Shown here: one piece after another, positions 4,031 to 64,000 of the stretch
How the letters are laid out: every line of letters starts with the position of its first letter
How positions within the stretch are numbered: position 1 is the first letter of the stretch
Source: Nanoarchaeota archaeon SCGC AAA011-D5
GTDB taxonomy: Archaea; Nanobdellota; Nanobdellia; Pacearchaeales; GW2011-AR1
Direction: 5' to 3'
Length of the DNA: 64,000 nt
Assembly (NCBI GenBank): GCA_000405225.1
Contig: ASMP01000002.1
Location: 1,494-65,493 of the forward strand
The notes under the pieces: model-generated
Seen by the model: only the letters and a program-made list of their open reading frames with translations
Database searches by the model: none
Told to the model about the DNA's origin: nothing
Translations under genes and position numbers: made by a program

Positions 4031-4031
4031 A

Positions 4032-4277
4032 ATGGGACAAATAAATTTAATTAATATAATAAGCAACAGATTTGATGGACGTATTAAATCTTTTACAGAA
4101 TTATGTTCAAACTGTAAGTTTTATAAAAAGATTAATGGCGAGGATAGATGCTATTGGGGAGTTGCATATAAGGTATTGGACACTATAATAACATTGTCAT
4201 TTTGCCAATTGATAAAAAAGCCAAGCCCAAGATTAGAAATATTAAACTCAAGATCTAAAGTACTTGAAAATATATAA
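4032..4277 (+). CDS. hypothetical small Cys-containing protein (81 aa) in the rpoB-rpoA spacer
   Basis: ORF starts 1 nt after the rpoB stop. Very AT-rich. Contains CSNC plus two more Cys. No recognisable family. Confidence 0.3.
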   Translation: MGQINLINIISNRFDGRIKSFTELCSNCKFYKKINGEDRCYWGVAYKVLDTIITLSFCQLIKKPSPRLEILNSRSKVLENI

Positions 4278-4303
4278 AAAATCAAAACGAAAAAAACAAG
4301 AAA

Positions 4304-17017: not shown

Positions 17018-17770
17018 GTGGGTATTAGCATGACGGCACATCCTGTAGAAAGATTAAAAGAATACGGGCTTTCGCAAAACGAAGCGATAATTTATATAGC
17101 TTTACTTAAAACAGGGGAAGCATCAGCACAGAAAATCGCAAAAAATGCCAAATTACCCCGTACAACTTCTTACCATCTGCTTGACAGTCTTTCGCAAAGG
17201 GGATTGGTGAGCTATGTAATAAAAGGTAAGGTCAAGTATTTTCAGGCAGCTTCGCCTAAAAGATTAACTGAAATTCTTGAAGAAAAGAAGAGAATGATAC
17301 AGGAATTTATTCCTGAATTGATGGGCATTGCGGAAACTATAAAAGAAAAGCCACGAGTTGTGGTATTTGAAGGATTAAATGGTATTAAAACAATCTTACA
17401 AGACGTTTTGCAAGAAAAGCGCGAGATCCTGCATTATGGAGATATAATTTCACTACAAAATGCTCTCCCTTTTATTTTTCCACAATTCATAAAAAGGCGT
17501 GTTGAAAAGAAAATTCCCATAAGAATCATTTGTAAGAGAGAGGATGCCCATAAAGAACTCCTTAGAACTGCAAAGAAAGAGTACAGACAATTTATATTTA
17601 TACCAAAAAATTACATTTTTAAGTCGAGCATATTCATTTATTCTGATAAGGTTGCCATATTGAGTTTGCAAAGCGAACCCTATTATGGGATTATTATAGA
17701 AGACAAAGATTATTATGAAACACAGAGAAATATTTTTGGAATGTTAAAGGATGCTTATGCACGGTATTAA
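17018..17770 (+). CDS. TrmB-family transcriptional regulator
   Basis: N-terminal wHTH LKEYGLSQNEAIIYIALLKTGEASAQKIAKNAKLPRTTSYHLLDSLSQRGLV. Track start is GTG; the first ATG is at 17030. Confidence 0.75.
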   Translation: MGISMTAHPVERLKEYGLSQNEAIIYIALLKTGEASAQKIAKNAKLPRTTSYHLLDSLSQRGLVSYVIKGKVKYFQAASPKRLTEILEEKKRMIQEFIPELMGIAETIKEKPRVVVFEGLNGIKTILQDVLQEKREILHYGDIISLQNALPFIFPQFIKRRVEKKIPIRIICKREDAHKELLRTAKKEYRQFIFIPKNYIFKSSIFIYSDKVAILSLQSEPYYGIIIEDKDYYETQRNIFGMLKDAYARY

Positions 17771-19296: not shown

Positions 19297-20529
19297 ATGA
19301 TACACAAAATGGAAAAGAAATTTTTGGTTTCTTTCCTATTAGCGGTGAGTGTTTTGTTCCTTGCTGCTACTGTAAGCGCTACCAATTTTGCAACCATCAC
19401 AAATGTTGAAGTTGATGGCGTTGATTGGAATAGCAATCCGGCAATAGTTGTCGGGGATTCGGTAACTATAAGAGTTGACTTTAATTCTTTCGTTAGCGCA
19501 TCTGACGTTACAGTAGAAGTGGAACTTGAAAGCGACAAAAAGGATGTTAGATTAGAGACTAGGCCTTTCGATGTCGAGACAGGACAAACATACACAAGAT
19601 CCTTGAGGCTCGAAGTTCCTTTTGACCTGAAAGACACGCTTAGCGAATTTGTTACTTTAACCGTTGAAATTAGCGGAGACGGTTTCAAAACAACAGAGTT
19701 CAGGGAACTGAGACTTCAGAGAACTGCTTTCGATGCAAGCATAAAGGCGATTAGTGTTCCTCAGAGAGTCGGTGCCGGAGAAACTTTCCCGGTCGATGTT
19801 GTTCTGAAGAACATAGGTTACAACGATCTTGATGACCTTCTCGTGACTGCAAGTATGCCTGCCCTTGGCTTAGAAAGAACAGCTTTCTTCGGAGACATCG
19901 TGGCATTGGAATGTGACGATAAAGCTTCATCTGTAGAGAATTACGGTGTCGAAGGTCTAACGAGAAAGTGCGATGAAGATGACCAAGACACAGTCGCTGG
20001 AAGAGTATTCCTTCAGTTGCCGTGGGATGTTGCAGCCGGTGTCTATGCGCTGGAAGTAACTGTCGAGAACGATGACACGAGTTCAAGCAAAATCGTTCAG
20101 GTCGCTGTAGAGAACGCCTTTTCTTCAGGAAACTTTATAGTTTCCGGAAACCAGTTGCTAATAGTGAATCCTACAAACCAGGTAGTTGTCTACAGGGTTG
20201 TTCCTGAATCCACAGGTGCTGTTTCGGTCAGCGTGAGCGACAGTCTTGTCGCAGTTCCAGCTGGATCAAGCAAGACAGTTCTTGTTGACGCAACGTCAAA
20301 TGTTGCAGGAACACAGACATTTGCAGTGAATATTTTCTCTGCAGACGGTTCCCTCCTAGAAAGGGTGGAATTTGCTACATCTGGAAACGGAAAGGATAGC
20401 GGCGCCGCAAGTTCAATCGTTGTATTAACAGTCATACTGGCAATAATATTCATAGTATTGCTAATTGTTCTGATAGTACTGATTGGAAAGAAACCTGAAA
20501 AGGAAGAATTCGGAGAAAGCTATTACTAA
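19297..20529 (+). CDS. cell-surface (S-layer-like) protein: Sec signal, beta-sandwich repeats, C-terminal TM anchor
   Basis: Signal peptide FLLAVSVLFLAATVSA. Repeated beta-rich modules. C-terminal SSIVVLTVILAIIFIVLLIVLIVLIGKKPEKEE. Followed by a long T-rich terminator. Confidence 0.65.
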   Translation: MIHKMEKKFLVSFLLAVSVLFLAATVSATNFATITNVEVDGVDWNSNPAIVVGDSVTIRVDFNSFVSASDVTVEVELESDKKDVRLETRPFDVETGQTYTRSLRLEVPFDLKDTLSEFVTLTVEISGDGFKTTEFRELRLQRTAFDASIKAISVPQRVGAGETFPVDVVLKNIGYNDLDDLLVTASMPALGLERTAFFGDIVALECDDKASSVENYGVEGLTRKCDEDDQDTVAGRVFLQLPWDVAAGVYALEVTVENDDTSSSKIVQVAVENAFSSGNFIVSGNQLLIVNPTNQVVVYRVVPESTGAVSVSVSDSLVAVPAGSSKTVLVDATSNVAGTQTFAVNIFSADGSLLERVEFATSGNGKDSGAASSIVVLTVILAIIFIVLLIVLIVLIGKKPEKEEFGESYY

Positions 20530-20639: not shown

Positions 20640-21152
20640 ATGAAAAAAATAAAACTCGGACAATTAGAAGTTGATTTAGGAGAACTGACTGATTTCATAG
20701 TTGAAGCCAAGAAAAATGGCTATGCTGCGGGCGGAGAAAAAAGAAGATGGTCAGATGGGTCAAAAACATTCACCTTCCATAATGGGAATTTTCATTACAG
20801 AGACAATTATGCTGGCTCTTATCAGGCACCAGGTAGCGAAATAGTAAGATGGAAGAAACCAGATGGCCAGAGAATATGGCAGATGTCTTATTCTGGAGGA
20901 ATACGTCCAGAGTTTTGGGGAAACTCGGAATTAAAAGATCAAACTCTTGGATTTCTTAAGGGAGCTTTACTAAAAGTAAGTCATGCTCATCCTTTTAGAG
21001 GTCCTGAAAGATATAGAGACGGGGGTTTAATATACATCTTAACAATAGATGGGGACATCAGGAAATTCCGTGGCCATGAATGTATAATAAATGAAGATTC
21101 TGATGGTGTTATATTCTCACAACATATAATTGGCTGCTTGGTTGTGCCTTAA
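20640..21152 (+). CDS. conserved hypothetical protein (resembles DUF5680 family)
   Basis: Pattern LTDFIVEAKKNGYA.GG ... YRDNY.G ... W.MSY.GG ... PFRGP recalled from DUF5680-type proteins. From memory, not searched. Confidence 0.45.
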   Translation: MKKIKLGQLEVDLGELTDFIVEAKKNGYAAGGEKRRWSDGSKTFTFHNGNFHYRDNYAGSYQAPGSEIVRWKKPDGQRIWQMSYSGGIRPEFWGNSELKDQTLGFLKGALLKVSHAHPFRGPERYRDGGLIYILTIDGDIRKFRGHECIINEDSDGVIFSQHIIGCLVVP

Positions 21153-29924: not shown

Positions 29925-30062
29925 GCCCATGTCGCATAGTGGTATTGCAGCGGATTGCTAACAGGAAGAACCAAGGTTCTTCTATGATGACATCTCCTTT
30001 TTGGAGAAAAGACAAACATCCGCGCCCTTCGGGGTTCGCAGGTTCGATTCCTGCCGTGGGCG
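29925..30062 (+). tRNA. tRNA-Ser (anticodon GCT) with a ~57-nt intron 3' of anticodon-loop position 37
   Basis: Acceptor GCCCATG/CGTGGGC. Anticodon stem GCGGA...TCCGC with loop TTGCTAA interrupted at ~29961-30017. Long variable arm GCCCTTCGGGGTTC. T arm GCAGG-TTCGATT-CCTGC. Discriminator G. TTTTTTAAGC box ~34 nt upstream, and T5 downstream. Confidence 0.8.
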
Positions 30063-35074: not shown

Positions 35075-35881
35075 ATGATAGTAAAAGATGAATTTCTGGG
35101 CAGGCTAAGAAAGATTTTTGACCTGAATTTATACGAGGTAAAGGTTTGGGCCGCTCTTCTTTCCAGGGGAACTTCGACTGCCGGAGAACTGAGCAGCATT
35201 TCTGATGTGCCGAGATCAAGGACTTATGATATTCTCGAGAGCCTCGAAAAAAAAGGATTTATAATAATGAAGCTAGGAAAGCCGATAAAGTTTATAGCTT
35301 TAAAGCCTGCAGAAGTTGTTGAGCGCGTTAAGAAAAATATGATGACGGATGCAAAAGAAAAATCAAAGAGGCTTGAATCTCTTAGAGGTGATGAGGTGCT
35401 CGATGAACTGAATGCTCTTTTCACGAAAGGAGTTAAATTTGTTGAGCCTTCTGATTTGTCAGGAAGCATCAAAGGCAGACAGAATATTTACAATCATCTG
35501 GACATGATGGTAAGGGAGGCGGAAAAGACAGTTACCATAGCGACAACTGAGGAAGGTTTGAACAGGAAATTCGAGGCTTTGATGCCTAGCTTTGAAAAAT
35601 GCAGAAAAAGAGGTGTTAGGGTAAGGATTGCTGCACCGATAACAAAAAATAACATAAAGATTGCAAAGGAAATCAGGAAAGTTGCAGAGGTCAGGAACCT
35701 TGAAAAGTTTAAGGCAAGGATGACAATTGTGGACGGAAATCAGATGATGTTCATGCTCTTAGATGATGAAAAATTCCACCCGAATTATGATGTTGGTGTT
35801 TGGATAAACACAGAGTTCTTTGCCCATGCCCTCGAGCAATTTTTCGAACTCGCATGGAAAGACATGAAGCCCGTCAGGTGA
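35075..35881 (+). CDS. TrmB-family transcriptional regulator
   Basis: wHTH YEVKVWAALLSRGTSTAGELSSISDVPRSRTYDILESLEKKGFI plus a C-terminal TrmB-like domain. Confidence 0.75.
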   Translation: MIVKDEFLGRLRKIFDLNLYEVKVWAALLSRGTSTAGELSSISDVPRSRTYDILESLEKKGFIIMKLGKPIKFIALKPAEVVERVKKNMMTDAKEKSKRLESLRGDEVLDELNALFTKGVKFVEPSDLSGSIKGRQNIYNHLDMMVREAEKTVTIATTEEGLNRKFEALMPSFEKCRKRGVRVRIAAPITKNNIKIAKEIRKVAEVRNLEKFKARMTIVDGNQMMFMLLDDEKFHPNYDVGVWINTEFFAHALEQFFELAWKDMKPVR

Positions 35882-44193: not shown

Positions 44194-44308
44194 GTTCATT
44201 GATTTTAAGTAATGACAAAGAGGGGTTTTTACCGACGATAATCTTTTTCTTCACTTAAAATAAGTAATGACAAAAACTATTTTCTCGACGACAACAATTC
44301 TTTTAAAA
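44194..44308 (+). promoter_or_regulatory. envelope-island promoter/operator cassette, copy 1 (distal + proximal units + TATA-like box)
   Basis: AATGACAAA(44211)-N13-CGACGATAAT, then AATGACAAA(44266)-N11-CGACGACAAC-N4-CTTTTAAA(44300). ATG of the LmbE gene is at 44344. An extra partial CTCGACGACAAGG lies at ~44154. Confidence 0.6.
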
Positions 44309-52715: not shown

Positions 52716-52830
52716 GTTCATTGATTTTAAGTAATGACAAAAAGCCATTTTTATCGACGGTAATTATTCCTTTTCACCAAACGAAAGGAATGACAAAAAC
52801 TATTTTCTCTACGACAATAATACTTTTAAA
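52716..52830 (+). promoter_or_regulatory. envelope-island promoter/operator cassette, copy 2
   Basis: The 26-mer gttcattgattttaagtaatgacaaa is identical to copy 1. AATGACAAA(52733)-N13-CGACGGTAAT, then AATGACAAA(52789)-N11-CTACGACAAT-N4-CTTTTAAA(52823). Confidence 0.6.
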
Positions 52831-53034
52831 GAAAATACTTTTAATCATTTCATGATTATTCATAAGAGAGTAGTGACTGATAAAAGAGCAGCAAACATCT
52901 CTCTGTCAAATTCAAAAGAAACCTCACCAATTCATAGTTATGCATTAAATGTGTATAACACCCGGCAGAGTGAAATTCTCACTCAGCTCAACTTTGTTGG
53001 GTGCCTTGAAGTACTGAAAGGAGGTTATATATAA

Positions 53035-54132
53035 ATGAAAAGCTTATTTACACTATCGGTAATGGCTTTATTAGTGTTAGCTGTCATGCCCGCAGTTCTT
53101 GCTGTAAGTGTCGGAAGCGGTATAACTCCAGACATTACAACAGAAGACTTCGCTCCATTGGTTTGGATGTGTGATTCTAGAGTTGTCTACGATGATGCAA
53201 CTGAACCTGGAAGAATCTCTGGTGATGGTGAGGTACTTAAAGAAAGAATAAACAACTATGCTTTCGAAGGAGAGCAGATAACGTGGAGAGTTCTTGTAAT
53301 GGACAAAAACGGAGTTGAGAAAATTGAAGATGTTTTTGCCACAATAGGAGACTCCCAAGGTGAAGGAAACGACATAGAAGTAAACTGTCAGGAAGTATGG
53401 GTTGGAAATGACATAGACGAGACATGTAATGCAAGAATCCTTGAAGAAGACTTAGATGACTTCGATGGAGATGTAATGAAGTACTATGACTGTACTCTTA
53501 CAGTTGAAACACCTGAGAGCATGAGTGGCGAGAAATGGGTAACTGTTGAAGCTGTTGACCTAGATGGCTTGTCCGGAACAATGGATGAGAATGAATTTTG
53601 GTTCCTTAACCCTGATATAGCGTTAAGTATTGACGGAATACTAACGTTTGATGATGTGAGGCCTGGAACACAGAGTTACTCAAATACATTGTTAGTTGGA
53701 AACGACGCTGAACTTGGTTCAGGAGTTCTACTTGATATGTTTATATCAGGTACTGACTTTTATGATACATCAAGCAGCGGAGCAATGTGTCCAACAACAA
53801 ACCAGTTAACTTTGGACAATTTCAGATACTATGTCACAAACGGCGCTTACAACTCTGCACTAGATGCAGGGGCTGACTCTGTTGATTCCGACAGAGCTAC
53901 TGACGTAGAGGGATATACAAATATAGAATATGGTATAGGATTCAATAATCCAGCCCCATTCTATGACAATGCAGAAATATTACAAGCAGGACCTTCTATT
54001 GGCCCATACTACACTGCTAACATCTTGGCACCAGGTTCTGAAATGGCATTAACCTTCAAGTTAAGTTTGCCAGAGCCATGTAACGGTGACTTCGACTCGG
54101 GAAGCATATTCTTCTGGGGAGAAGCTATCTAA
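53035..54132 (+). CDS. secreted beta-rich protein (365 aa), distant paralog of the 58766/59224 subunit domain
   Basis: Sec signal ..VLAVMPAVLAV. LTFDDVRPGT motif shared with VDFGTRVPGT and LNFGSLSPGT. The 28-nt ribosome-binding/start region is identical to that of 58766. Confidence 0.6.
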   Translation: MKSLFTLSVMALLVLAVMPAVLAVSVGSGITPDITTEDFAPLVWMCDSRVVYDDATEPGRISGDGEVLKERINNYAFEGEQITWRVLVMDKNGVEKIEDVFATIGDSQGEGNDIEVNCQEVWVGNDIDETCNARILEEDLDDFDGDVMKYYDCTLTVETPESMSGEKWVTVEAVDLDGLSGTMDENEFWFLNPDIALSIDGILTFDDVRPGTQSYSNTLLVGNDAELGSGVLLDMFISGTDFYDTSSSGAMCPTTNQLTLDNFRYYVTNGAYNSALDAGADSVDSDRATDVEGYTNIEYGIGFNNPAPFYDNAEILQAGPSIGPYYTANILAPGSEMALTFKLSLPEPCNGDFDSGSIFFWGEAI

Positions 54133-54272: not shown

Positions 54273-55532
54273 ATGTTAATAAAAAAAAACATGGCAACAC
54301 TTGGAATCTTAATTGTAGCATTTGCCGTAGTCTTGGCATCAGCAGTTTATGCTACGCATATTCCTGTGCAGTGCAATGATGGCGCTGATAATGACTTAGA
54401 CGAAAAAATAGACTTTCCTACAGATAATGGGTGCTCAAGTGCATTAGATAACACTGAAAGTATAACATTAGGATATGCACATGGGTGTCTTACTAATGGA
54501 GATGAATTAAAAGATGTTTTTGGAAATACAAATTACCAATGTAATGCTAATTCTTGCATAGCATGTGTTTTGATGACTGAAGCAGGGAATTGGACAACAC
54601 TTCTAAGTAAATGTAATAATTTGCCTCCTTGTGGATTCAATGATGGCAATGGGGGAGTCGGCGGAAACACGACAATAGATTCACAACCACCTAACCTAAC
54701 AATAAACAATCCAATAGAAGGGAGGATTTACAACTCCAGGACGGTTTTGCTTGATCTGAAAGTAGATGAAAAATCAGATATTTATTACACCGATTTAGTC
54801 AACGGGCGCGGAAGATGGACAAGGGTCTGCTCTGATTGTCTTGGATATAAAAGGACAAGGTCTTTCGGAGAGGGGCTTAACAGCATACAATTCAAAGCGT
54901 CAGATGTTATCGGAAATACTGCCTATAAAAACATCTCGTTTTTTATAGATAGCATGAAACCAAGAATACTAAGAGAAGAGCCAAAAGACGGATTCACAAG
55001 CGGGGATTTCTCAATACAATTTAGTGAAGATAATCCTGAAAGATTATTCATGACGTATGGGGACGTTAATCCAGGATTTAATGTTCATGAAATAGACATA
55101 GATAATGAGTGCCAGTTAGAGAGAGGGAGATATTACTGCGACACCCATATTAACCTATCTGGGTATGATGGGCATGAAATATTGTACTGGGTGACTCTCA
55201 CAGACATTGCAGGCACACAGACTGATTCCAAAAAACATAACGGATTGGATGTTGATACAACTTCCCCTGTTATAAATAGTTTAACCAATACAATTAACAA
55301 AAGGTATGTTAATTTTGTAGTCAACGTCACGGAAGAAAACTTTGACGAAGCAAATTATTCTTACATAGACACCAATGGAAGAACAAGAGAAGGGAGACTG
55401 TGCTCCAGATTAAAAGACGGAATTTGCGAGAAAAAATTAAGTTTCAGACCAGGGCATTTTGATGTTTCAATTCAGGTTTTAGACAAGGCTGGAAACAGCG
55501 TTGGGCAAGTAACCAGCTTTGATGTTGTCTAA
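54273..55532 (+). CDS. secreted protein with a C.DG.DND-type Cys/Asp-rich N-terminal motif and Cys-pair Ig-like modules
   Basis: Signal peptide. CNDGADNDLDEKIDFPTDNGC. Modules containing RWTRVCSDC, FFIDSMKPRI, DVDTTSPVI, LDKAGNS. Confidence 0.6.
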   Translation: MLIKKNMATLGILIVAFAVVLASAVYATHIPVQCNDGADNDLDEKIDFPTDNGCSSALDNTESITLGYAHGCLTNGDELKDVFGNTNYQCNANSCIACVLMTEAGNWTTLLSKCNNLPPCGFNDGNGGVGGNTTIDSQPPNLTINNPIEGRIYNSRTVLLDLKVDEKSDIYYTDLVNGRGRWTRVCSDCLGYKRTRSFGEGLNSIQFKASDVIGNTAYKNISFFIDSMKPRILREEPKDGFTSGDFSIQFSEDNPERLFMTYGDVNPGFNVHEIDIDNECQLERGRYYCDTHINLSGYDGHEILYWVTLTDIAGTQTDSKKHNGLDVDTTSPVINSLTNTINKRYVNFVVNVTEENFDEANYSYIDTNGRTREGRLCSRLKDGICEKKLSFRPGHFDVSIQVLDKAGNSVGQVTSFDVV

Positions 55533-55595: not shown

Positions 55596-58592
55596 ATGAA
55601 AAAAGAAATCTTGATAATAGCATTAACGATTACACTAACTGTTTTTTTGGCTAGTTTTCTTTCTGCGGCAACGTTTTTTGTTGACAATACCGTTTCTTGT
55701 GATGATAATACTTTAAATTCATCGGCAACGCCTTATTGTGAGATTCAAGAAGCTGTTGATGACGCTTCAAATGGGGATACTATTAATGTTGTTGCTGGGA
55801 CGTATGACGAACAGGTTGTGATTGACAGCAAGAGCTTAACACTTCAAGGTGCTGGAGATACAACAATCATAAAACCATCTTCGGCTAGTTTATTGACAAC
55901 TTTTTATACATACCCAATCGGAGTTTTGCCGGCGTGGGTTGGACTTAAACTTGCTGGTTCGATTTTAGTTAAAAATAACTCTAATGTAACAGTAAAAAAT
56001 TTGAAAGTTGACGGAATAGATGTTTCAAGTTTGCCTGTTGGAGCAGATAGACTCGCCGGAATAATATATGGGGAAGCTGGAGGACTAATCTCAAATGTAA
56101 CTGTTAACAATATCAAGACTCCTGGTTACTCAATAAGAGGATATGCAATTGATACTAGTTCAGTTACAGCTCCCTTAAACATAGAAATTAAAGACAGCAG
56201 AGTTAATGATTTTGCCCGCACAGCAATTCAAGCACAGAGTGCAAATCTTACAGCCAATATTCATGATAATGTAATTGTCGGACCTGGTTCAATTGGCCCT
56301 GCGAATGTGCCAAACGGTATAGTTTTAATTGCCGGAGCAAAAGGAAATGCAACTAATAACAAAATTAGTGCTAATCATTATACTGGCGTCACTTTTTTAG
56401 GTTCGGGGGTATTGTTATTCCAGGCAGGAGATGGAATCTTAATATCAAACAACGAGATTTTTGATGTTGATGATGCAATAATTCTTGCTGGAACAGATTT
56501 GTCCAATGTTCAAAATAATAATCTTCATAATAATGTTAAAGGAGTTAGAATTGAAGACGTTAGCGGGGATGGTTCTGCAAGTAACAGCCTAACAGATAAT
56601 ATAATTAAAGATAACACATTATTTGGAATAGACATCGGAAGTTCTTCTGGGGGAAGCAATTCTGCAAATAAAAACAGCATTACTGGAAATTCTGTAGGAG
56701 TAAATAACGGGGGTGCATTCAGTTTCAATGCAACATATAACTGGTGGGGGGATTGCTCTGGGCCAGATGTTGATGGACTGGGAAACCCTGGAACAGGAGA
56801 CAGAATTGTAAATGCATCTGGACCTGTTCTTTTTAATCCATGGGTTGGAGTTTGCATAACAGATAAAATTAATGTTCAATGTGCAGAGCAATCAAAAGAT
56901 GTAATGCTTAGTGCAAATGTTAGCTCTTTCATAGGAACTCCGGCTTTAGACGATGTTTGGTTTTCATATACAATAAATGGAACAAATTACAACAAAACCG
57001 GACTAAATACTTTCGGCGACGTTTATAATGCCACAATAAATTCCTCAGAATTGGTTGGTGGGCAAAGTGTAAGTTGGAATGTTTATGCAAATGATACTTC
57101 AGGCGTTGTTGTTGGAAATGGGCTTCAGACATTTTATGTGCGCAATGCGACGAGGCTTGGAATTGTGCCCTTTCCTGCAGACGGGTTAAATGGCTGGTGG
57201 GTTACAGAGCCGGTATTTTCATTAACGCCAGATGCAGCAAGTGCTGGAAATGATTCATGGTATCAATGGGATGCCGATGATATCTTCAAATATACGGGAC
57301 CTTTTGACTTGGATGATATTCCAAATGCCCCCCCTATAGAATCTGCAGGAACTCTTGGATTAAACTGGTGGACAACTTTTGGAATTTGCGGAAATGAAAC
57401 TGTTCAAAGTCAGACTTTATTTATTGATTTAAAAAATCCGCTGATCACAGATCTTCAGCCAGCTGATGGCTCAACAGTTTTCAATAATTTAAGTCCGACG
57501 ATAAGTGCACTTCTAGATGAGGTTTACCAAAGTAATTCAGGAATTAATCAAAGCAGTGTTTCAATGAGGCTTGATGGTGTGTCTGTTAGCGCAAATGTAA
57601 CTCCTTCTGGAGATTTGGATGCTATTGTGAATTTTACTCCTAGCTTTAATTTATCTCTTGGAAACCATCAAGTTTATGTAAATGTAACAGACAACGCAGG
57701 AAGATTTTCACAGAAAACATGGAACTTCACAATAAATACAACTGGTGTGTTTAATATGACTGTTCATTCACCGAAAAACATAACATATAGCACAAGAAAA
57801 ATTCCATTTAACATAAGCTTAACTGGAGAGGTTGAAAAACTAGAATACATTAATTACAATGAAAGAATTCCTCGTTGGAGAATATTATGCAGAGACTGCA
57901 ATCAATCTGGATTTGACAAACAAAAAAACAAAACACTGCTTGAAGGAGAAAATTTAATAGGAATAAAGGCAACCGATTTCCTTGGACAGATGAATCAGCA
58001 AAATATAAGCTTGTTCATTGATACCAAATCTCCTAAAATACTTAAAACAGAACCTGCCAAAAACAAGGTAACAAACGGAAGCTTTTCAATAAAATACACT
58101 GAAGATAATGTAAAGGAAGTCTTGTTAAGCTGGAATCCAACTGTAAATTTAACGAGCCAGTGCAATACGCCTGGAAAAAACGTTGTCTGCGACGTGCAAA
58201 TTAACAATAATCTCTCTAACTTTTCAGCTTATGACGGACAGAATATAATGTATTGGATTAACATGACAGATGTTGCTAACCATACGGCCAGCACAAAACC
58301 AACGAAGGTTTTTGTAGACACGACAGCACCAGTAATAAATTTCTTTAATCATTCTATATCAGGAAAAACCGTTGAATTTGTTATTCTTATTACTGAAGCT
58401 AATTTTGATGAGATAAATTACTTTGATTTAAGCCAAAGTAATCCAAAAAAAGTGCAATTATGTTCAAAAATTAGTGGTGGGCTTTGCAACAAGAAAAAAA
58501 CCTTTAAAACCGGCGCACATAACTTAACAATTAATGTTCTTGACGACGCTGGAAATGCTGCAATGCAAAATTTGAACTTCATAATCTCATAG
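55596..58592 (+). CDS. large secreted adhesin-like protein: right-handed beta-helix region + Ig-like modules (998 aa)
   Basis: PYCEIQEAVDDASNGDTINVVAGTYDE followed by repeated N..I/V.GN-type beta-helix turns. >30 N-x-S/T sequons. C-terminal modules paralogous to 54273 and 61062. Confidence 0.7.
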   Translation: MKKEILIIALTITLTVFLASFLSAATFFVDNTVSCDDNTLNSSATPYCEIQEAVDDASNGDTINVVAGTYDEQVVIDSKSLTLQGAGDTTIIKPSSASLLTTFYTYPIGVLPAWVGLKLAGSILVKNNSNVTVKNLKVDGIDVSSLPVGADRLAGIIYGEAGGLISNVTVNNIKTPGYSIRGYAIDTSSVTAPLNIEIKDSRVNDFARTAIQAQSANLTANIHDNVIVGPGSIGPANVPNGIVLIAGAKGNATNNKISANHYTGVTFLGSGVLLFQAGDGILISNNEIFDVDDAIILAGTDLSNVQNNNLHNNVKGVRIEDVSGDGSASNSLTDNIIKDNTLFGIDIGSSSGGSNSANKNSITGNSVGVNNGGAFSFNATYNWWGDCSGPDVDGLGNPGTGDRIVNASGPVLFNPWVGVCITDKINVQCAEQSKDVMLSANVSSFIGTPALDDVWFSYTINGTNYNKTGLNTFGDVYNATINSSELVGGQSVSWNVYANDTSGVVVGNGLQTFYVRNATRLGIVPFPADGLNGWWVTEPVFSLTPDAASAGNDSWYQWDADDIFKYTGPFDLDDIPNAPPIESAGTLGLNWWTTFGICGNETVQSQTLFIDLKNPLITDLQPADGSTVFNNLSPTISALLDEVYQSNSGINQSSVSMRLDGVSVSANVTPSGDLDAIVNFTPSFNLSLGNHQVYVNVTDNAGRFSQKTWNFTINTTGVFNMTVHSPKNITYSTRKIPFNISLTGEVEKLEYINYNERIPRWRILCRDCNQSGFDKQKNKTLLEGENLIGIKATDFLGQMNQQNISLFIDTKSPKILKTEPAKNKVTNGSFSIKYTEDNVKEVLLSWNPTVNLTSQCNTPGKNVVCDVQINNNLSNFSAYDGQNIMYWINMTDVANHTASTKPTKVFVDTTAPVINFFNHSISGKTVEFVILITEANFDEINYFDLSQSNPKKVQLCSKISGGLCNKKKTFKTGAHNLTINVLDDAGNAAMQNLNFIIS

Positions 58593-58707
58593 TTCATTAG
58601 ACAGGAGTAATGATAAAAAGCCATTTTTGTTGACGGTAATTGTTCCTTTTCATTGAACAAAAGGAATGACAAAAACTATTTTGTCGATGACAATAATGCT
58701 TTTAAAG
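58592..58707 (+). promoter_or_regulatory. envelope-island promoter/operator cassette, copy 3
   Basis: AATGATAAA(58609)-N13-TGACGGTAAT, then AATGACAAA(58665)-N11-CGATGACAAT-N4-CTTTTAAA(58699). ATG is at 58766. Confidence 0.6.
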
Positions 58708-58765
58708 AAACGGGTTTTGAAGAGTCTAGGTGATAATAAGAGAGCTGAAAGGAGGTTATATATAA

Positions 58766-59218
58766 ATGAAAAAACTTTTACTTTTTTGGGTGATGTTTGG
58801 TGTTCTTATTAGTATGTCAAGTTCTGTTCTTGCTGTTAATCAGGGGCTGAATGTAACAATTGGTGAAGACATTCATCTTTTGATTAATCCTGATACAGTT
58901 GATTTCGGAACAAGAGTACCTGGAACTGGTTATTCTGCATTAAACGGACCCATAACATTTGATGCTACCGGAAGTAATGTTGATGTAACTGTAACAGTTT
59001 CAGCTGTAACAGGATTCCCTTTTGATAGCGCTACATTGCTTTTAGATGGAGATAGTACTCCAGTAGGAAAATCTTGGCTTTTAGTATGTGAAACTCCCCT
59101 TACAGTATGCACATATGATGTTGCAAGCACTGTGCCAACATTAGATATTCCAACAGGAGCTTCACAAGGAAACCATGTAGGAACAATAACATACACAGTA
59201 ACAGGCCCATCGCCATAA
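58766..59218 (+). CDS. small secreted beta-rich protein (150 aa), candidate filament/major subunit
   Basis: Sec signal ..MSSSVLAV. The mature ~125 aa is ~50% identical by eye to the C-terminal domain of the next gene. Conserved Cys pair. Ends TITYTVTGPSP. Confidence 0.6.
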   Translation: MKKLLLFWVMFGVLISMSSSVLAVNQGLNVTIGEDIHLLINPDTVDFGTRVPGTGYSALNGPITFDATGSNVDVTVTVSAVTGFPFDSATLLLDGDSTPVGKSWLLVCETPLTVCTYDVASTVPTLDIPTGASQGNHVGTITYTVTGPSP

Positions 59219-59223
59219 TTAAA

Positions 59224-60321
59224 ATGGAATATAAAAAGTTCCTTATCTTTTTTGCGGTATTTGTAATATCGGTTGGACTTGTGTCTGCTGCCGTTACCGT
59301 AACATCGAAAAGCAGATCGTCCACTGGAGCAGCGTTCACAGAAATTTCTACGGAAAATGATGTTTCCATTCCAAATTCCTTAAGATTATTTGCAAGTGAA
59401 ATAACAAGTTTTCCTCCAACAAATGAGGCAAGATTTAGGGTAAATTTTGCTTCAGGAACAAAATTATCCGACTTGGAAAGTGTTTCTTGGATGCAGTTTG
59501 TTGATCATGGATACATTTCCCATGTTGATGTTTTGCTTGATATCAACGGAAATGGAGTTTATGATGGAACTGCTGGAGGCGACGATGCATTAGTTTTCGA
59601 ATATGCCAAGGTTAAGCCTAGTTTAGGGTGTGACGATGTAGATGATTACCCTCTTGGAAGTGTTGATACATTTGGAGACAAAGGAATCGTAGATAATGAT
59701 GCTTGGGCTTGGTTAACTTCAGGACCTGCAGGAGGATGTGCATCACCAGCAACAGAATTTTTCTGGCATGTTTTAAGTGCTTGGAAAGCAGGCGTACCTC
59801 CTTCAGAGGCTAATGGAAAAACCATTAATGGAAACACAAAAGTCGTTGCATTAGAAATAGAAGTAGACGGATGGATAGCAGAATCAGAGGCATTTATAGA
59901 CGATGTTAAAATAAATAATGCGTTGGTTGAAAATTTTGACGGCGCGCAGGTAGTGGAAGTTGAAATTGTCGCCCTTACACTTGTAAGCATCGCTCCTACG
60001 AGCTTGAACTTTGGCTCACTCTCACCAGGAACAACAGACAATGCCGCATTAAATGGGCCCATCTTGTTTGATGCTACTGGCAGCAATACAAATGTTAACA
60101 TAGAAGTTGCATCTGTTACTGGTTTTCCTTTTGCAGATGGTCTAGAATTTGATGGATTTAATCCAGTAGGACAAGATTGGGACTTTATTTGTGTAGTAGT
60201 TAATAATGTTTGCACATATCCGGTTCAATCAACAGAGCCCACCTTAAGCATACCAGCAGGAGCAGTTATTGGAGAGCATATAGGAACTGTAACATATACT
60301 GTGACAGGATCTCCACCATGA
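59224..60321 (+). CDS. secreted two-domain protein: N-terminal jelly-roll/lectin-like domain + C-terminal subunit-like domain
   Basis: Signal peptide. N-domain ends ..EIEVDGWIAESEAFIDDVKINN. C-domain LNFGSLSPGT..NGPILFDATGSN..VTGFPF..VCTYPV..GTVTYTVTGSPP parallels the 58766 product. Confidence 0.6.
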   Translation: MEYKKFLIFFAVFVISVGLVSAAVTVTSKSRSSTGAAFTEISTENDVSIPNSLRLFASEITSFPPTNEARFRVNFASGTKLSDLESVSWMQFVDHGYISHVDVLLDINGNGVYDGTAGGDDALVFEYAKVKPSLGCDDVDDYPLGSVDTFGDKGIVDNDAWAWLTSGPAGGCASPATEFFWHVLSAWKAGVPPSEANGKTINGNTKVVALEIEVDGWIAESEAFIDDVKINNALVENFDGAQVVEVEIVALTLVSIAPTSLNFGSLSPGTTDNAALNGPILFDATGSNTNVNIEVASVTGFPFADGLEFDGFNPVGQDWDFICVVVNNVCTYPVQSTEPTLSIPAGAVIGEHIGTVTYTVTGSPP

Positions 60322-60325
60322 GAAA

Positions 60326-61060
60326 ATGAAAATTAAGTTTTTTTTATTATTTATAACTTTAACTTTATTCGTGTTGAACGCGATTCAGGCTGTCGGCTTT
60401 TCGCCGAGCAGCTTGACCTTTGATCTAGGAAAAAATCAGGAAGAATGTAAAATGATAACAATAGAATCAGATTCAGAAAAAATAACAGTTTCAGATAGCT
60501 GGGCAGAGAATGAAAGTGTTGAATGGAAAGTCAGTTCATTTAACACAAGTTCAAGTGAGCATGAAATTACAATAACCTATGACAATGAACTTTCTATTGA
60601 TGAAAGAGAGGTTGAAGTTTGCCTTTCTGGAAGCAAACTTGGAGAATATCATGGAGTTTGGTTATTTCAAGAAGAACAGCAAGGAAATTCTGTTGTTCAA
60701 TTTGGAGTTTGGCTCAAAGTTTTAATAAATGAGCAACCAGTAGCTGCCAGTAGCTCAGGTGGAGGTGGAGGCTCTGGAGGTGGAGGCGGAATCATTGCTC
60801 CGAAAAATACTACGAATACGACAAATAATTCTATAAAATTTGAAAATACAGCTAATGCACAATCTGAAACAGAAGCGGGAACTGAGTCAGCAGGAACAGA
60901 AGGAGAAACAGAAGATTCTTTTTCCAGAATAACAGGCAGAGCTATTTGGGGAAATATAAATGCCAGAAACTTAATTGCGCCTGCCGCGGTAATCGTCCTT
61001 GCGATTGTTGCATTAATAATTTATAAAAGAAAAAATAACTTGCGGCAAAGGGGATATTAA
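60326..61060 (+). CDS. signal peptide + single beta-sandwich + Gly-rich/acidic linker + C-terminal TM anchor protein
   Basis: ..AVGFSPSSLTFDLGKNQEECKMITIES.., GEYHGVWLF, SSSGGGGGSGGGGG, LIAPAAVIVLAIVALIIYKRKNN. Confidence 0.55.
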   Translation: MKIKFFLLFITLTLFVLNAIQAVGFSPSSLTFDLGKNQEECKMITIESDSEKITVSDSWAENESVEWKVSSFNTSSSEHEITITYDNELSIDEREVEVCLSGSKLGEYHGVWLFQEEQQGNSVVQFGVWLKVLINEQPVAASSSGGGGGSGGGGGIIAPKNTTNTTNNSIKFENTANAQSETEAGTESAGTEGETEDSFSRITGRAIWGNINARNLIAPAAVIVLAIVALIIYKRKNNLRQRGY

Positions 61061-61061
61061 C

Positions 61062-61985
61062 ATGAAAAAAAGAGGTTTTTTATTTTTAGGGATTTTATTA
61101 GTTGGAACAGTGTTTGCTTTTACCATGGAGCAGGGTTTAAAGGTGACTATTTTAACAGGAGATATAAATATTATTTCCCCTATGCAGGATAATATTTATG
61201 ATGACAGAAGAATTCCTGTCATAATTTTGCTTAGCGAAGAAGCCGAGTATTTAAAAGTTAGCGATAACGGCGGAAGATTTAGAAATCTTTGCAGAAACTG
61301 CGATAGTTTAGGCTTTTGGTCAACTAGGATAATGGGCTTTGATGAAGGATTCCATGAACTGGAATTCGTGGCCGTATTTAGTGATAGAACTGTGTCACAA
61401 AACGTGTCTTTCTTTATAGATAGTAAAGATCCAACAATAACTAAAACAACGCCAGCAAGAAATCAGGTAACAAACGGATCTGACTTTTCTGTTAAATACA
61501 CAGAGAGTAATGTAAAAGAAATCTTATTGATCTGGAATCCAACTATTAATCTTACTGGACAATGTGCTTCTGGAGAAGACGTAATCTGCAATGTGCCCCA
61601 AGTTGACTTAACAGCTTTTGATGGGCAGGAAATTGAATACTGGTTTAATGTAACAGACATTGCCGACAACACAGATAGTTCTATTCCAACAAAAGTCCTG
61701 GTTGATACAACTTCCCCCTTGCTGACTGTGAATGCTCCTGTAAATACCGCTTATGGAAGAAGAGTTCCTTTTAATCTAAGTGTTAGCGAAGATGTTACCT
61801 TGGATTTAATAGACAACTCTGATTTAAGTCCAACATGGAAAAGAATATGCTCAAATTGTAATTCTTATGGATTAACCAGCTTAAGAACAAAGTCATTCAA
61901 AACAGGAATGCACGACATTGTAATCAGGGCAACAGACAAGGCAGGCAACAGCGACAGCGAAGCTGTAAGTCTTGATGTTGCCTAA
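61062..61985 (+). CDS. secreted protein made of three Cys-pair Ig-like modules (paralog of the 54273 and 55596 C-termini)
   Basis: RFRNLCRNC, FFIDSKDPTI, VTNGSDFSVKYTESNVKEILLIWNPTINLTGQC, VDTTSPLL, WKRICSNC, TDKAGNS. Confidence 0.6.
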   Translation: MKKRGFLFLGILLVGTVFAFTMEQGLKVTILTGDINIISPMQDNIYDDRRIPVIILLSEEAEYLKVSDNGGRFRNLCRNCDSLGFWSTRIMGFDEGFHELEFVAVFSDRTVSQNVSFFIDSKDPTITKTTPARNQVTNGSDFSVKYTESNVKEILLIWNPTINLTGQCASGEDVICNVPQVDLTAFDGQEIEYWFNVTDIADNTDSSIPTKVLVDTTSPLLTVNAPVNTAYGRRVPFNLSVSEDVTLDLIDNSDLSPTWKRICSNCNSYGLTSLRTKSFKTGMHDIVIRATDKAGNSDSEAVSLDVA

Positions 61986-62056
61986 ATGCCAGATTAATTT
62001 CAAATTTTTAATTTCGGCCTTTTTTTCCTTTGTTTTCTTTATTTTCACCAAAAAGA

Positions 62057-62101
62057 AGTAATGACAAAAACTATTTTCTCGACGACAGCAATACTTAAAA
62101 A
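62057..62101 (+). promoter_or_regulatory. envelope-island promoter/operator cassette, copy 4 (proximal unit only)
   Basis: AATGACAAA(62060)-N11-CGACGACAGC-N4-CTTAAAAA(62094). ATG is at 62125. Confidence 0.55.
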
Positions 62102-62124
62102 GGGTAACTACTCTGGAATTACTA

Positions 62125-62766
62125 ATGATTAAAAGATTAGGCGTTATGGTGGTAATTTTATTCATTGTGCTGGTTAGCGTGGGGGCTGTCAGCGCCATTA
62201 CAGGAGCCATGGGAAACGCAAGGATGATACTTTATCCAGAGGTAAACGGACTGACATATACTGAAATTGAAAAAAGTCTCCTGATAAAGAACGTGAATAA
62301 TGAGTCCATCAACATCACTCTTCAAATTGATGAAGAAACAGGAAAATTCATTGAACTGATTGATGAAAGCTTTATTTTGGAACCAAAAACTGAAAAAAAA
62401 GCGCAATTTATTGTTAAGGTAAAAGAAGAAGGAACTTACAAAGGAAAAATAGCTGTTTTTTTCTCTGGTTTGGGAAAGCAAAAAGCAGGGGTTGCTTTGT
62501 CCTCTGAAGTTATTGTAATAGCAAGAAAGGACCAAGGAAGCAGAGGCGGAGGCGGTGATTCCGGAGGGGTTGGGCAGGAAGACACAGGAGGAGTAATTAG
62601 CGACGAAAGTGGAGAAAAGAAGAGCTCTTTAACAACTTCAGGATTGCTGATTGTCCCTGTTCTTGTCTTGTCAATTATTCTTGTAGCTTTGATGATTATC
62701 ATGATGAAAAAAAGAAAAAAAGGCGATAAAAGGAGGAAGAAAGTAAATGCAAGGAGAAAAAAATGA
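62125..62766 (+). CDS. signal peptide + single beta-sandwich + Gly-rich linker + C-terminal TM anchor with a highly basic tail
   Basis: ..LIKNVNNESINITLQID.., GTYKGKIAVFF, GSRGGGGDSGG, LLIVPVLVLSIILVALMIIMMKKRKKGDKRRKK. Same architecture as 60326..61060. Confidence 0.55.
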   Translation: MIKRLGVMVVILFIVLVSVGAVSAITGAMGNARMILYPEVNGLTYTEIEKSLLIKNVNNESINITLQIDEETGKFIELIDESFILEPKTEKKAQFIVKVKEEGTYKGKIAVFFSGLGKQKAGVALSSEVIVIARKDQGSRGGGGDSGGVGQEDTGGVISDESGEKKSSLTTSGLLIVPVLVLSIILVALMIIMMKKRKKGDKRRKKVNARRKK

Positions 62767-64000
62767 AGAAATTTGTGCTGGTGGCTTTAACCGCCTTTTT
62801 GACGATTTTTCTGATTAATTCTGCATTAGCAGCAGATGTAGCATATATTGTGAAAAGCAGTGCTAATCCTTTTTTAACAAGTGAATTAAGGAATAATGGC
62901 TTAACATATGATATCATTCGTGAATCAAATTTAACATCAACGAATTTTTCAAAATACAGGATGCTTTTAGTTGGAAATGATAATTTTGATGATTTTACAA
63001 AAATTCCTGCTGAAAAATATAATTCTTTGATTATCAATGAGTATAATTCCCAGTGGGGATGGAGTTTTAGAAGGGGCTCAATTTCAAGTCCGACAAGCAT
63101 AAGATTTAGTACTCTCAACACAACGCTGTCAGATGGAATTCCAGAAGTTTTCAAAGGATACTTTCTTCACGACATAAATGTTAACACATATTACCTGTCT
63201 GGAAAAAAAGCAACGGGAATTAAGTTTATAGCAAATATTGATGGAAGGCCATCTTATGACTCTGTTCTTGCGGTTGCATATCCTGGAGCAGAATATTTAA
63301 ACGGTAAAATCGGGGAGAAAAGAAGTTTATTTTTTGGTATTGTTGAGACAAAATACTGGAGCATTGACTCCAGACAACTTTTCAGAAATTCCCTTGACTG
63401 GGTTTTGATTGGAGAAGACAATGACAATGATGGATTTTACAGCGACGATGACTGTGATGATGCAAATGCCGGGATAAACCCTGATGGAGAGGAAGTGGCT
63501 TATGATGAAATTGACCAAGACTGCAATGGCTATGACCTGGCAGACGTTGACTTTGATAGTTACTGCAAGGAAGGATATTCGATAAAAAATGCTTCATTCC
63601 AATGCCCAAAAGAATCAGGCGCATCAGGAACCGATTGCGACGATGAAGATTCGGATTTTAATCCGGGAAGCCAGAAGCTTCCATTAAACTGCAGGAACGA
63701 TGCACCAACAATTTCAAGTATTCCTAATTTCATTGTCAGAGAATCTCAACTTGTCAAGTTAATTATATCTGCAAGCGATCCTGAAAATGATTCATTGACA
63801 TATAACATAAATGACACCAAATTCACGCAGACAGGCACAAATACTTTCCAATGGCAAACAAGTTATTATGATGCAGGCAATCATAGTTTCATGGTTAGTG
63901 TAAGCGATGGACAATTAAATGCTACAAAAAACTTTAAAGTAGAGGTCAAGGAAGAAAATCAGGCTCCTGAATTAAATGCAACAATTCCCGATCAATCATG
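62763..64000 (+). CDS. secreted multidomain surface protein, 3'-truncated by the window edge
   Basis: Not in the ORF track because there is no stop in the window. Hand translation MKKFVLVALTAFLTIFLINSALAADVAYIVK... The ATG overlaps the upstream TGA (ATGA). Contains DNDNDGFYSDDDCDDANAGINPDGEEVAYDEIDQDCNG (Cys/Asp metal-binding-type motif) and a PENDSLTY Ig-like repeat. Confidence 0.6.
   Translation, partial: MKKFVLVALTAFLTIFLINSALAADVAYIVKSSANPFLTSELRNNGLTYDIIRESNLTSTNFSKYRMLLVGNDNFDDFTKIPAEKYNSLIINEYNSQWGWSFRRGSISSPTSIRFSTLNTTLSDGIPEVFKGYFLHDINVNTYYLSGKKATGIKFIANIDGRPSYDSVLAVAYPGAEYLNGKIGEKRSLFFGIVETKYWSIDSRQLFRNSLDWVLIGEDNDNDGFYSDDDCDDANAGINPDGEEVAYDEIDQDCNGYDLADVDFDSYCKEGYSIKNASFQCPKESGASGTDCDDEDSDFNPGSQKLPLNCRNDAPTISSIPNFIVRESQLVKLIISASDPENDSLTYNINDTKFTQTGTNTFQWQTSYYDAGNHSFMVSVSDGQLNATKNFKVEVKEENQAPELNATIPDQS

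Follow-up and report, generated by a model that had tools for sequence, protein, structure and literature searches.

A conserved operon of secreted proteins in DPANN archaea as a candidate for surface assembly by beta-strand complementation

A compact operon of four genes encoding secreted proteins is present in a 64,000-nucleotide (nt) stretch of contig ASMP01000002.1 from Nanoarchaeota archaeon SCGC AAA011-D5. This stretch is referred to as the window, and all positions are counted from its first nucleotide unless another locus is named. The genes of the operon and the two genes behind it are labelled by their starts as g1 (58766), g2 (59224), g3 (60326), g4 (61062), g5 (62125) and g6 (62763). 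The reading favoured here, with a probability of roughly 0.45, is that g1-g4 encode a Sec-dependent module for surface assembly that is specific to DPANN and in which beta-strand complementation in trans, known as the donor-strand principle, holds the parts together. In this mechanism, g1 would be the bare subunit and likely build the shaft, which could be a long fibre or a short stalk, and g2 would likely be a distal glycan-binding adhesin, with a head resembling a carbohydrate-binding module (CBM) placed ahead of a donor strand and a g1-type domain. The g4 protein would act as a cap, terminator or adaptor, similar to Saci_0405 or PapH/FimI. Finally, g3 could serve as an anchor and/or a membrane-tethered chaperone, carrying a putative beta-sandwich on a long flexible linker and replacing both the periplasmic chaperone and the usher of bacterial systems. 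The g1-g4 operon is a good candidate for a means by which DPANN cells would attach to their hosts.

The first evidence for such a module is the conservation of its gene order. A listing of open reading frames (ORFs) exactly reproduces the coordinates of the five ORFs g1-g5 and the spacers of 5 nt (g1-g2), 4 nt (g2-g3) and 1 nt (g3-g4) that were reported in a first-pass annotation of this DNA. The five ORFs, all on the forward strand, encode proteins of 150, 365, 244, 307 and 213 amino acids (aa), respectively. Homologous regions were compared in 41 related loci, consisting of 18 species genomes from GTDB anchored on g3 and 23 independent metagenomic loci anchored on the g1 domain. In the g3-anchored set, a gene ending in a g1 domain lies immediately before g3 wherever upstream sequence exists and a g4-family gene mostly follows; the order g1 domain, g3, g4 is found in 17 of the 18 loci. 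In the set anchored on the g1 domain, g3 follows the last g1-domain gene in all 16 loci with enough sequence, and g4 then follows in 11 of 12. The g3 gene is always immediately downstream of, and translationally coupled to, a g1-domain gene, with a median gap of 1 nt (at most 10 nt in 33 of 36 cases). The arrangement of the window, in which g1 is followed by g2 and g3, is also observed in L025, L030 and L034, and three Pacearchaeota loci in which g2 is just 37-39% identical still keep the order g2, g3, g4. Named sources of g1-g4 homologues are all metagenome-assembled genomes of Pacearchaeota, Woesearchaeota or 'Nanoarchaeota', which belong to DPANN. Synteny, on which the first-pass annotation had staked its proposal, is thus very strong across the 41 loci, and the operon can be regarded as a conserved, co-transcribed-looking module specific to DPANN. 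That three unrelated families keep a nearly invariant order and a spacing of 1 nt at a g2 identity of only ~37-39% argues for a physical interaction between the products.

The domain shared by g1 and g2 provides the second line of evidence. The g1 protein is 54% identical to residues 256-365 of g2 (112 aa, E=2e-33), in agreement with the earlier estimate by eye of about one half. No match to Pfam or NCBIfam was found for g1, g2 or g3, and searches of PDB sequences with single sequences or family profiles were also negative for these three proteins. Among 44 g3 and 45 g1/g2 family members, the only Pfam matches are weak ones to Gram_pos_anchor in 3 of the 44 g3 proteins. When 1.84 billion representatives were searched exhaustively with a profile, the g1 domain was detected in just 148 clusters. 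A bare single-domain form, as in g1, is present in 114 of the 140 representatives analysed, and 14 of the 140 have an extra N-terminal domain. In every case the g1 domain is placed at the extreme C-terminus, with a median of 1 residue after it. The AlphaFold2 monomer model of g1 has a predicted local distance difference test score (pLDDT) of 91.0, and its best PDB neighbours in Foldseek are almost only donor-strand pilins (CfaB, FimG, CS17, CsuA/B, CS20, SafA, FimA/I and the pilin domain of PapG), together with the archaeal CanA. The scores against these chaperone-usher (CU) pilins are modest, with E-values of 5e-4 to 0.1, TM of 0.40-0.51 and probabilities of 0.9-1.0. Ordinary S-layer or CARDB modules, which had been named beforehand as structural matches that would speak against a filament, do not top the list, and donor-strand pilins do. 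A possible relationship between g3 and the g1 domain was rejected.

A resemblance of g1 to TasA and camelysin proteins had also been suggested. It is very improbable that g1 is a divergent member of this superfamily (AbpA, AbpX, CanA, thread-like), although such an origin would agree with an N-terminal strand logic as in CanA and the threads and with weak Foldseek matches to CanA (7uii, 9h8b and 9hdi; probability 0.35-0.93, E 0.04-0.12). The suggested resemblance fails every sequence test: no PF12389 match was obtained for g1, g2 or the 45 family members, even at E<=0.1, and a profile search of PDB sequences gives no TasA, AbpA, CanA or thread chain. Within the top 50 fold matches of g1, the structures of TasA, AbpA and the thread are absent and CanA ranks 20, 29 and 50; the neighbours are Ig-type pilins and not TasA jelly-rolls. 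As a separate observation, weak matches to a portion of the g1-domain profile recur 10-14 times in tandem in each of three large proteins, P0297 (976 aa), P0328 (2121 aa) and P0352 (1615 aa), and the g1 fold may also exist as tandem repeats in large surface proteins.

The third line of evidence is a short amphipathic segment that was overlooked in the first-pass annotation and is referred to here as the Q-strand. It has the pattern Q-x-φ-x-φ-x-φ (φ = hydrophobic) and is located just past the signal peptide in g1-domain proteins; the signal peptides of g1-g6 are all of the Sec/signal peptidase I (SPI) type with a V-x-A cleavage site. The mature N-terminus of g1 (QGLNVTIGEDI) aligns with the inter-domain linker of g2 (QVVEVEIVAL). 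Across 115 diverse single-domain representatives, the occupancy of the Q-strand is 97%, and its glutamine, three residues past the cleavage site, is 78% conserved. In the same representatives, the share of hydrophobic residues is 78-97% at g1 positions 28, 30 and 32 and 8-14% at positions 27, 29 and 31, an alternation as strong as that in the core strands of the g1 domain. The mature N-terminus of g4 opens with the same motif, EQGLKVTILTGDI (Q24-I30, nt 61131-61151), while the remainder of g4 is unrelated to g1, and the profile alignment of g1 and g4 stops exactly where the Q-strand ends. Among non-redundant g4-family proteins, the Q-strand is present in 21 of the 22 encoded directly downstream of g3 but in only 1 of 16 paralogues elsewhere. 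It is found in none of 80 other signal-peptide ORFs and none of 22 g3 proteins, against a background of 2.5% per window of sequence. This absence from other secreted ORFs indicates that the Q-strand is not a general export signal.

In both monomer models, those of g1 and g2, DSSP assigns no strand to the Q-strand segment. In this respect, the modelled segment parallels the N-terminal 19 residues of CanA, which lack order in the monomer and form strand A once the filament is assembled (10.1101/2024.12.30.630787). Donor-strand systems show just such a portable N-terminal amphipathic strand on the various subunits that one operon encodes, and its sharing by g1, g2 and g4 adds independent support for strand exchange. 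Since g4 has a Q-strand but no g1 domain, it would be able to donate but not to accept a strand, which suits a cap, terminator or adaptor.

The architecture of g2 is consistent with a position at the distal end. An N-terminal jelly-roll or lectin-like domain had been proposed for this protein, and the AlphaFold2 model (pLDDT 88.7) confidently shows a jelly-roll, with the linker as the sole low-confidence stretch (pLDDT 55). The head matches CBM11 (6r31), CBM30 (1wzx), CBM22 (4xup), CBM4 and GH11-type structures in Foldseek (TMt 0.25-0.54, probability up to 1.0), and the g2 model also matches SGBP-B. By sequence, no CBM family was recognised for the head in Pfam or NCBIfam. The region of residues ~80-236 is a mobile module that is present in other architectures as well. 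Five aromatic and acidic residues of the head are invariant (W163, W217, H100, E213 and D215), which is only suggestive of sugar binding. Heads in front of the g1 domain vary by locus and can be CBM-like, lamin-tail (LTD) or cohesin-like. The comparison of g2 with two-domain tip adhesins is upheld by its layout of a head followed by a pilin domain; other loci replace this head.

Several observations weigh against strand exchange. The fold scores of g1 are modest (best E=5e-4), and complete MSP/VAP Ig domains match the model about equally (TMt 0.48-0.49), so that the g1 domain could form a complete sandwich by itself, in which the Q-strand would serve as strand A. L001, L003, L007 and L019-L022 have only a two-domain subunit and lack a neighbouring gene for a bare one, an arrangement that a 1:1 complex explains no less well than a shaft does. 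In addition, the Q-strands of g1 and g4 show no co-variation within genomes (permutation, p=0.19 and 0.12), and the g3 sequence has no similarity to PapD-like chaperones, TapA or AbpB. The literature searched gave no experimental sighting of such fibres in DPANN and nothing that combines DPANN with donor-strand systems.

Part of this evidence also suits a non-filamentous, membrane-anchored modular adhesin, which is a strong alternative, although somewhat less probable than the favoured reading. In such a complex, the g1 domain would dock onto the g3 ectodomain at about 1:1, the variable heads would give specificity and no polymer would be formed. The Q-strand would then be either strand A of the g1 domain itself or a strand that beta-augments g3, and g4 would be another client of the anchor. 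The strict one-to-one adjacency and translational coupling of the g1-domain and g3 genes agree with docking, as do the tandem modules of L010 and L018, which each have their own g3, and a constant C-terminal domain behind a variable head would be expected for a docking module as well. However, 1:1 docking of adhesins does not easily account for the many head-less single-domain representatives, and the window, L025, L030 and L034 combine each g3 with two g1-domain genes. Also, the top structural neighbours of g1 are specifically polymerising pilins, and the Q-strand is unpaired in both monomer models. Assembly by strand complementation in trans remains the preferred reading. Its most extended form, in which g1-g4 would represent a class of their own of Sec-dependent donor-strand fibres in Pace-, Woese- and Nanoarchaeota, with CU-like Ig pilins, g3 in place of chaperone and usher, g4 as a strand-only cap and exchangeable distal heads choosing a host surface glycan or protein, is possible, though less likely than not.

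The membrane-anchored g3 family has at least 104 homologues, all without a Pfam domain. The ectodomain of ~120 aa is strongly conserved and includes C41/C99, a GEYHG motif and three tryptophans. Behind the ectodomain come a linker of low complexity that is Gly-rich and acidic, an almost invariant ITG (mostly ITGxxIG), a spacer, a transmembrane helix and a K/R tail, with the ITG motif at a distance of 12-20 residues from the helix. The g3 proteins of LTD-type loci are without ITG. In 111,000 residues of locus ORFs, the strict ITG motif occurs 10 times, each time just ahead of a C-terminal transmembrane helix, and two of these occurrences are on unrelated anchored secreted proteins (L001 1281-2027 and L003 5431-6267). 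The ITG motif, helix and basic tail together could possibly be an uncharacterised DPANN sorting or processing signal, as judged from this arrangement. The first-pass annotation had stated that sortase-type sorting signals were absent, a claim that is contradicted by the conserved, sorting-signal-like ITGxxIG, transmembrane helix and K/R tail of g3.

The g3 protein does not match the PACE-CTERM model NF033506, and neither a pacearchaeosortase nor a sortase was found in the window. A bona fide pacearchaeosortase (NF033505, 109 bits against a cutoff of 80) is encoded in L016 at 3862-4374 on the reverse strand, ~3 kb from the module, and another protein of the exosortase/archaeosortase family in L009 at 5121-5606 on the forward strand, within ~4 kb of a g1-domain and g3 pair. 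Archaeosortase genes were rejected as general companions of the module, being within 10 kb of it in only 2 of 18 loci. Nothing mentioning pacearchaeosortase was retrieved from the literature searched. In a Pacearchaeota locus (L001/L002, 6998-7630, reverse strand), a rhomboid-family protease gene is located directly upstream of the g2 homologue; its rhombosortase-like score is weak (45 bits, below the cutoff).

The sequences upstream of the genes hint at shared regulation. A repeated upstream cassette was noted in the first-pass annotation, and its 28-nt core, AATGACAAAAACTATTTTnTCGAyGACA, is indeed found in four copies in the window, with 0 expected. The 105-nt regions 5' of the gene at 53035 and of g1 are 89% identical, and a 28-nt leader and start region, CTGAAAGGAGGTTATATATAAATGAAAA, which covers the Shine-Dalgarno sequence and the start codon, is identical at 53014-53041 and 58745-58772. 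Therefore, 53035 and g1, which encode unrelated proteins, share essentially one promoter and ribosome-binding region. A third cassette copy follows the T-rich tracts behind g4, so that g5-g6 are a separate transcription unit. The locus thus has two transcription units, g1-g4 and g5-g6, nested in a larger cluster of surface-protein genes that extends from ~52730 to past 64000 and is wider than the block first described. The unit starting at 44344 behind another cassette copy is a PIG-L/WbqC glycan operon, and the shared 28-nt element suggests that genes for surface proteins and glycan modification belong to one regulon. Two regulators of the TrmB family are encoded in the window at 17018-17770 and 35075-35881.

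The same cassette in front of the glycan operon and of 53035 would also be expected if g1-g4 were co-regulated but independent secreted or S-layer-associated proteins without mutual assembly, for example for glycan capture like the surface glycan-binding proteins (SGBPs) of Bacteroides. This explanation, in which the N-terminal segment would be an export, processing or glycosylation signal, is improbable. The matches of g2 to SGBP-B and CBMs, N-x-T sequons inside several Q-strands and the separate putative S-layer protein at 19297-20529 agree with it. On the other hand, independent proteins would not readily account for the near-invariant order and tight spacing of three unrelated families across divergent loci, nor for a Q-strand that is missing from 80 other secreted ORFs and, with one exception, from the g4 paralogues outside the module.

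Table 1. Positions of the g1-g4 operon, its candidate donor strand, the upstream cassettes and neighbouring genes in the window.
Feature	Position	Strand	Description
g1, candidate shaft subunit	58766..59218	+	Sec signal, N-terminal Q-strand, one pilin-like Ig domain; AlphaFold2 pLDDT 91
g1 Q-strand, candidate donor strand	58841..58861	+	Q26-I32, QGLNVTI
g2, candidate distal adhesin	59224..60321	+	CBM-like jelly-roll head aa 25-237; Q-strand linker aa 242-248 (nt 59947-59967); C-terminal g1-type domain aa 249-365
g3, candidate membrane anchor or tethered chaperone	60326..61060	+	Signal peptide; ~120-aa beta-rich ectodomain; Gly-rich/acidic linker; ITGRAIWG aa 202-209 (nt 60929-60952); transmembrane helix aa 216-233; basic tail
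g4, candidate cap, terminator or adaptor	61062..61985	+	Secreted Ig-module protein; N-terminal Q-strand; without g1 domain
g4-g5 intergenic region	61986..62105	+	T-rich tracts past g4, then cassette copy 62001-62105 (core 62060-62087)
g5, orphan membrane-anchored secreted protein	62125..62766	+	g3-like architecture, without detectable homology to g3
g6, partial, continues beyond the window	62763..64000	+	Secreted; ~220-aa conserved N-domain, MopE-like Cys/Asp metal-binding motif, Big_9 Ig domain
Cassette cores	44266-44293, 52789-52816, 58665-58692, 62060-62087	+	5' of 44344 (PIG-L), 53035, g1 and g5
Cassette copy 5' of 53035 gene	52730..52834, core 52789-52816	+	Repeat family D1; 89% identical to g1 copy; core with 1 mismatch
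g1-g4 cassette	58606..58710, core 58665-58692	+	Inverted repeat GACAAAA-N4-TTTTGTC (read directly), then TTTAAA box
53035 gene, 365-aa secreted protein	53035..54132	+	Shares promoter and 5' leader with g1; syntenic with module
54273 gene, secreted Ig-module protein, g4-family paralogue	54273..55532	+	Weak Glucodextran_B/Big_13 matches; without Q-strand
998-aa secreted beta-helix and Ig-module protein	55596..58592	+	Beta_helix, NosD and Big_13 matches; C-terminus g4-like

The genes around the operon also encode secreted proteins (Table 1). The Ig-module make-up proposed for g4 is confirmed, and g4 is paralogous to the C-terminal ~280 aa of the 998-aa protein (43% identity, E=2e-56). Relatives of the proteins encoded at 54273 and 55596 recur near the module in related loci. 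Homologues of the 53035 product are located upstream of a g1-domain, g3 and g4 module in L006, L013, L014, L016, L017, L023, L033 and L035; the product itself has no match in Pfam, NCBIfam or PDB. A motif had been proposed to link g1 to the 53035 protein, but a shared fold or motif was rejected at the profile level, where just the signal peptides align.

The earlier description of one architecture shared by g3 and g5 holds for the layout, which is alike, but not for homology, which is undetectable by BLAST and reaches only 22% probability over 25 columns in hhalign. No g5 homologue was found in any of the 41 related loci, and its cluster at 90% identity consists of one sequence. The tail of g5 (LTTSG, transmembrane helix, KKRKK) resembles that of the putative S-layer protein and not the ITG tail of g3. 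An N-terminal 'ITGAMG' in g5 was considered as another instance of this motif; it fails the strict pattern and is taken as a coincidence. The start of g6 overlaps the stop of g5 by 4 nt, and g6-like genes are present in at least seven related loci (L003, L009, L010, L014, L015, L018 and L044).

The window is part of an archaeal chromosome, as shown by genes for the B and A subunits of RNA polymerase, EF-2, EF-1alpha and aminoacyl-tRNA synthetases. The A subunit of RNA polymerase is commonly encoded by split genes in archaea. In the window (4304-7792), it is a single ORF of 1162 aa with Rpb1 domains 1-5, in which A' and A'' are fused. At 29925-30062, a 138-nt Rfam tRNA match (43 bits) is present that is not called by ARAGORN and is presumably an intron-containing archaeal tRNA, its length leaving room for an intron. 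A secreted protein of 410 aa is encoded at 19297-20529. Over its C-terminal ~90 residues it matches the end of a PACE-CTERM model in NCBIfam for putative S-layer proteins (E=7e-7, below the cutoff), and its tail reads FATSGNG, transmembrane helix, KK. The product is likely an S-layer or anchored surface protein that is separate from the g1-g4 locus. The adjacent ORF at 20640-21152 was tried as a pacearchaeosortase, and the model search gave no match.

According to the first-pass annotation, the window is free of class III signal peptides and of genes of the PilB/PilC type. Domain scans and a regular-expression search agree: T2SSE and T2SSF domains (PilB/PilC-type, ArlI/ArlJ) are absent from window ORFs of >=140 aa, and the expression for class III signal peptides matched just one ordinary signal peptide in the window. 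In the related Pacearchaeota locus L009, an ORF at 11043-11316 has a signal peptide of class III, like that of type IV pilins (MLKQIKFKKG/LSEIVGYVLLI...), indicating that some of these organisms also have type IV pilins.

Host recognition and attachment are a central open question for DPANN archaea, and almost nothing molecular is known for Pacearchaeota and Woesearchaeota. The locus offers a concrete candidate in the form of a conserved surface module of three to six genes, in which the subunit is pilin-like, the strand motif is portable and the binding heads can be swapped. Should strand exchange hold true, donor-strand fibres would be extended to a further superphylum of archaea and to a subunit of the Ig type, assembly without a periplasm would be illustrated, and three protein families that are now 'hypothetical' (the g1 domain, the g2 head and g3) would be defined. 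Such a structure would be the first strand-exchange pilus of CU type, rather than TasA type, in Archaea and a candidate host-attachment organelle. In addition, the ITG, transmembrane and basic tail and the shared cassette point to an uncharacterised sorting signal and to a surface and glycan regulon.

Among the known systems, the CU pili (CfaB/CfaE, FimA/G/H/I and Csu) are the best structural neighbours of the g1 model. They share a compact operon and what may be the same subunit layout, an N-terminal amphipathic extension and an Ig domain at the C-terminal end. The head and pilin domain of g2 are comparable to FimH, PapG and CfaE, and g4 would resemble FimI and PapH as a terminator that donates a strand and accepts none. 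In contrast, the g1-g4 operon belongs to an archaeal monoderm without an outer membrane, and g1 has no sequence similarity to CU pilins. No match to PapD_N/PapD_C or Usher in Pfam was found in any locus protein, and a membrane-anchored, putative beta-sandwich protein, g3, occupies the accessory position. Also, g2 keeps a strand between its head and pilin domain, whereas CU tip adhesins are without a donor strand.

Known archaeal strand-donation filaments are of the TasA type (10.1101/2024.12.30.630787). In the thread locus of Sulfolobus acidocaldarius (Saci_0406), the co-transcribed Saci_0405 carries a donor strand, lacks an acceptor site and has been proposed as a cap (PMC9715654). Threads resemble the g1-g4 system in Sec/SPI-dependent export without type IV machinery, in an N-terminal donor strand directly past the cleavage site and in the cap logic proposed for g4. 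They differ in that g1 has no sequence match or top-50 fold match to 7PNB, isopeptide links are not in evidence here, and the thread locus has neither a head-bearing adhesin nor a g3-like anchor. Threads have been placed in the TasA superfamily; the thread subunit, AbpA and CanX are restricted to Thermoproteota, and AbpX/TasA homologues are widespread across archaeal phyla (10.1101/2024.12.30.630787). What the CanA/CanX cannulae, AbpA/AbpB and AbpX have in common with the proposed mechanism is that an N-terminal strand, disordered in the monomer, is donated without a chaperone. Bundling pili have an accessory TapA-like protein, AbpB, as a proposed filament initiator or anchor, and CanA gives weak Foldseek matches to g1. 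However, cannulae and bundling pili have TasA jelly-roll folds with detectable kinship at the PF12389 level, which the g1 family lacks, and occur in Thermoproteota and euryarchaeal lineages rather than in DPANN.

The haloarchaeal Tafi locus encodes TafA/TafE pilins, a TafC tip, a TafF membrane anchor and a TafD peptidase (PMC12337348). It resembles the g1-g4 locus, as read here, in combining strand donation with genes for major and minor pilins, for a tip and for a membrane anchor. It is different in being dependent on twin-arginine translocation (Tat) with a dedicated signal peptidase, whereas the g1-g4 locus is of the Sec type and no signal-peptidase domain was found in the scanned window ORFs of >=140 aa. 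The Tafi structure is absent from the top fold matches of g1. The set of roles proposed for g1-g4 recurs in known archaeal strand-donation loci, which encode a major pilin, a minor or cap protein, a protein for the tip and a membrane anchor (PMC9715654, PMC12337348).

The g3 tail is tripartite, with a short motif, a transmembrane helix and a basic tail, as in archaeosortase/PACE-CTERM substrates, but its ITG is set ahead of the helix instead of abutting it. The g1 domain closes its protein without a transmembrane helix or tail, unlike the subunits of sortase-dependent Gram-positive pili. WxL, DUF916/DUF3324, SCPU and DUF4402 domains were found neither in g1-g5 (E<=1) nor in the 44 g3 and 45 g1/g2 family members (E<=0.1). 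Type IV pili and archaella differ from the g1-g4 system, which has Sec/SPI signal peptides and no PilB/ArlI or PilC/ArlJ-type domains in the window. The g1-g4 system would work like CU pili, threads or Tafi yet belongs to none of them, as it has no chaperone or usher, no PF12389 kinship, no class III signal peptide and no sorting signal on the subunits.

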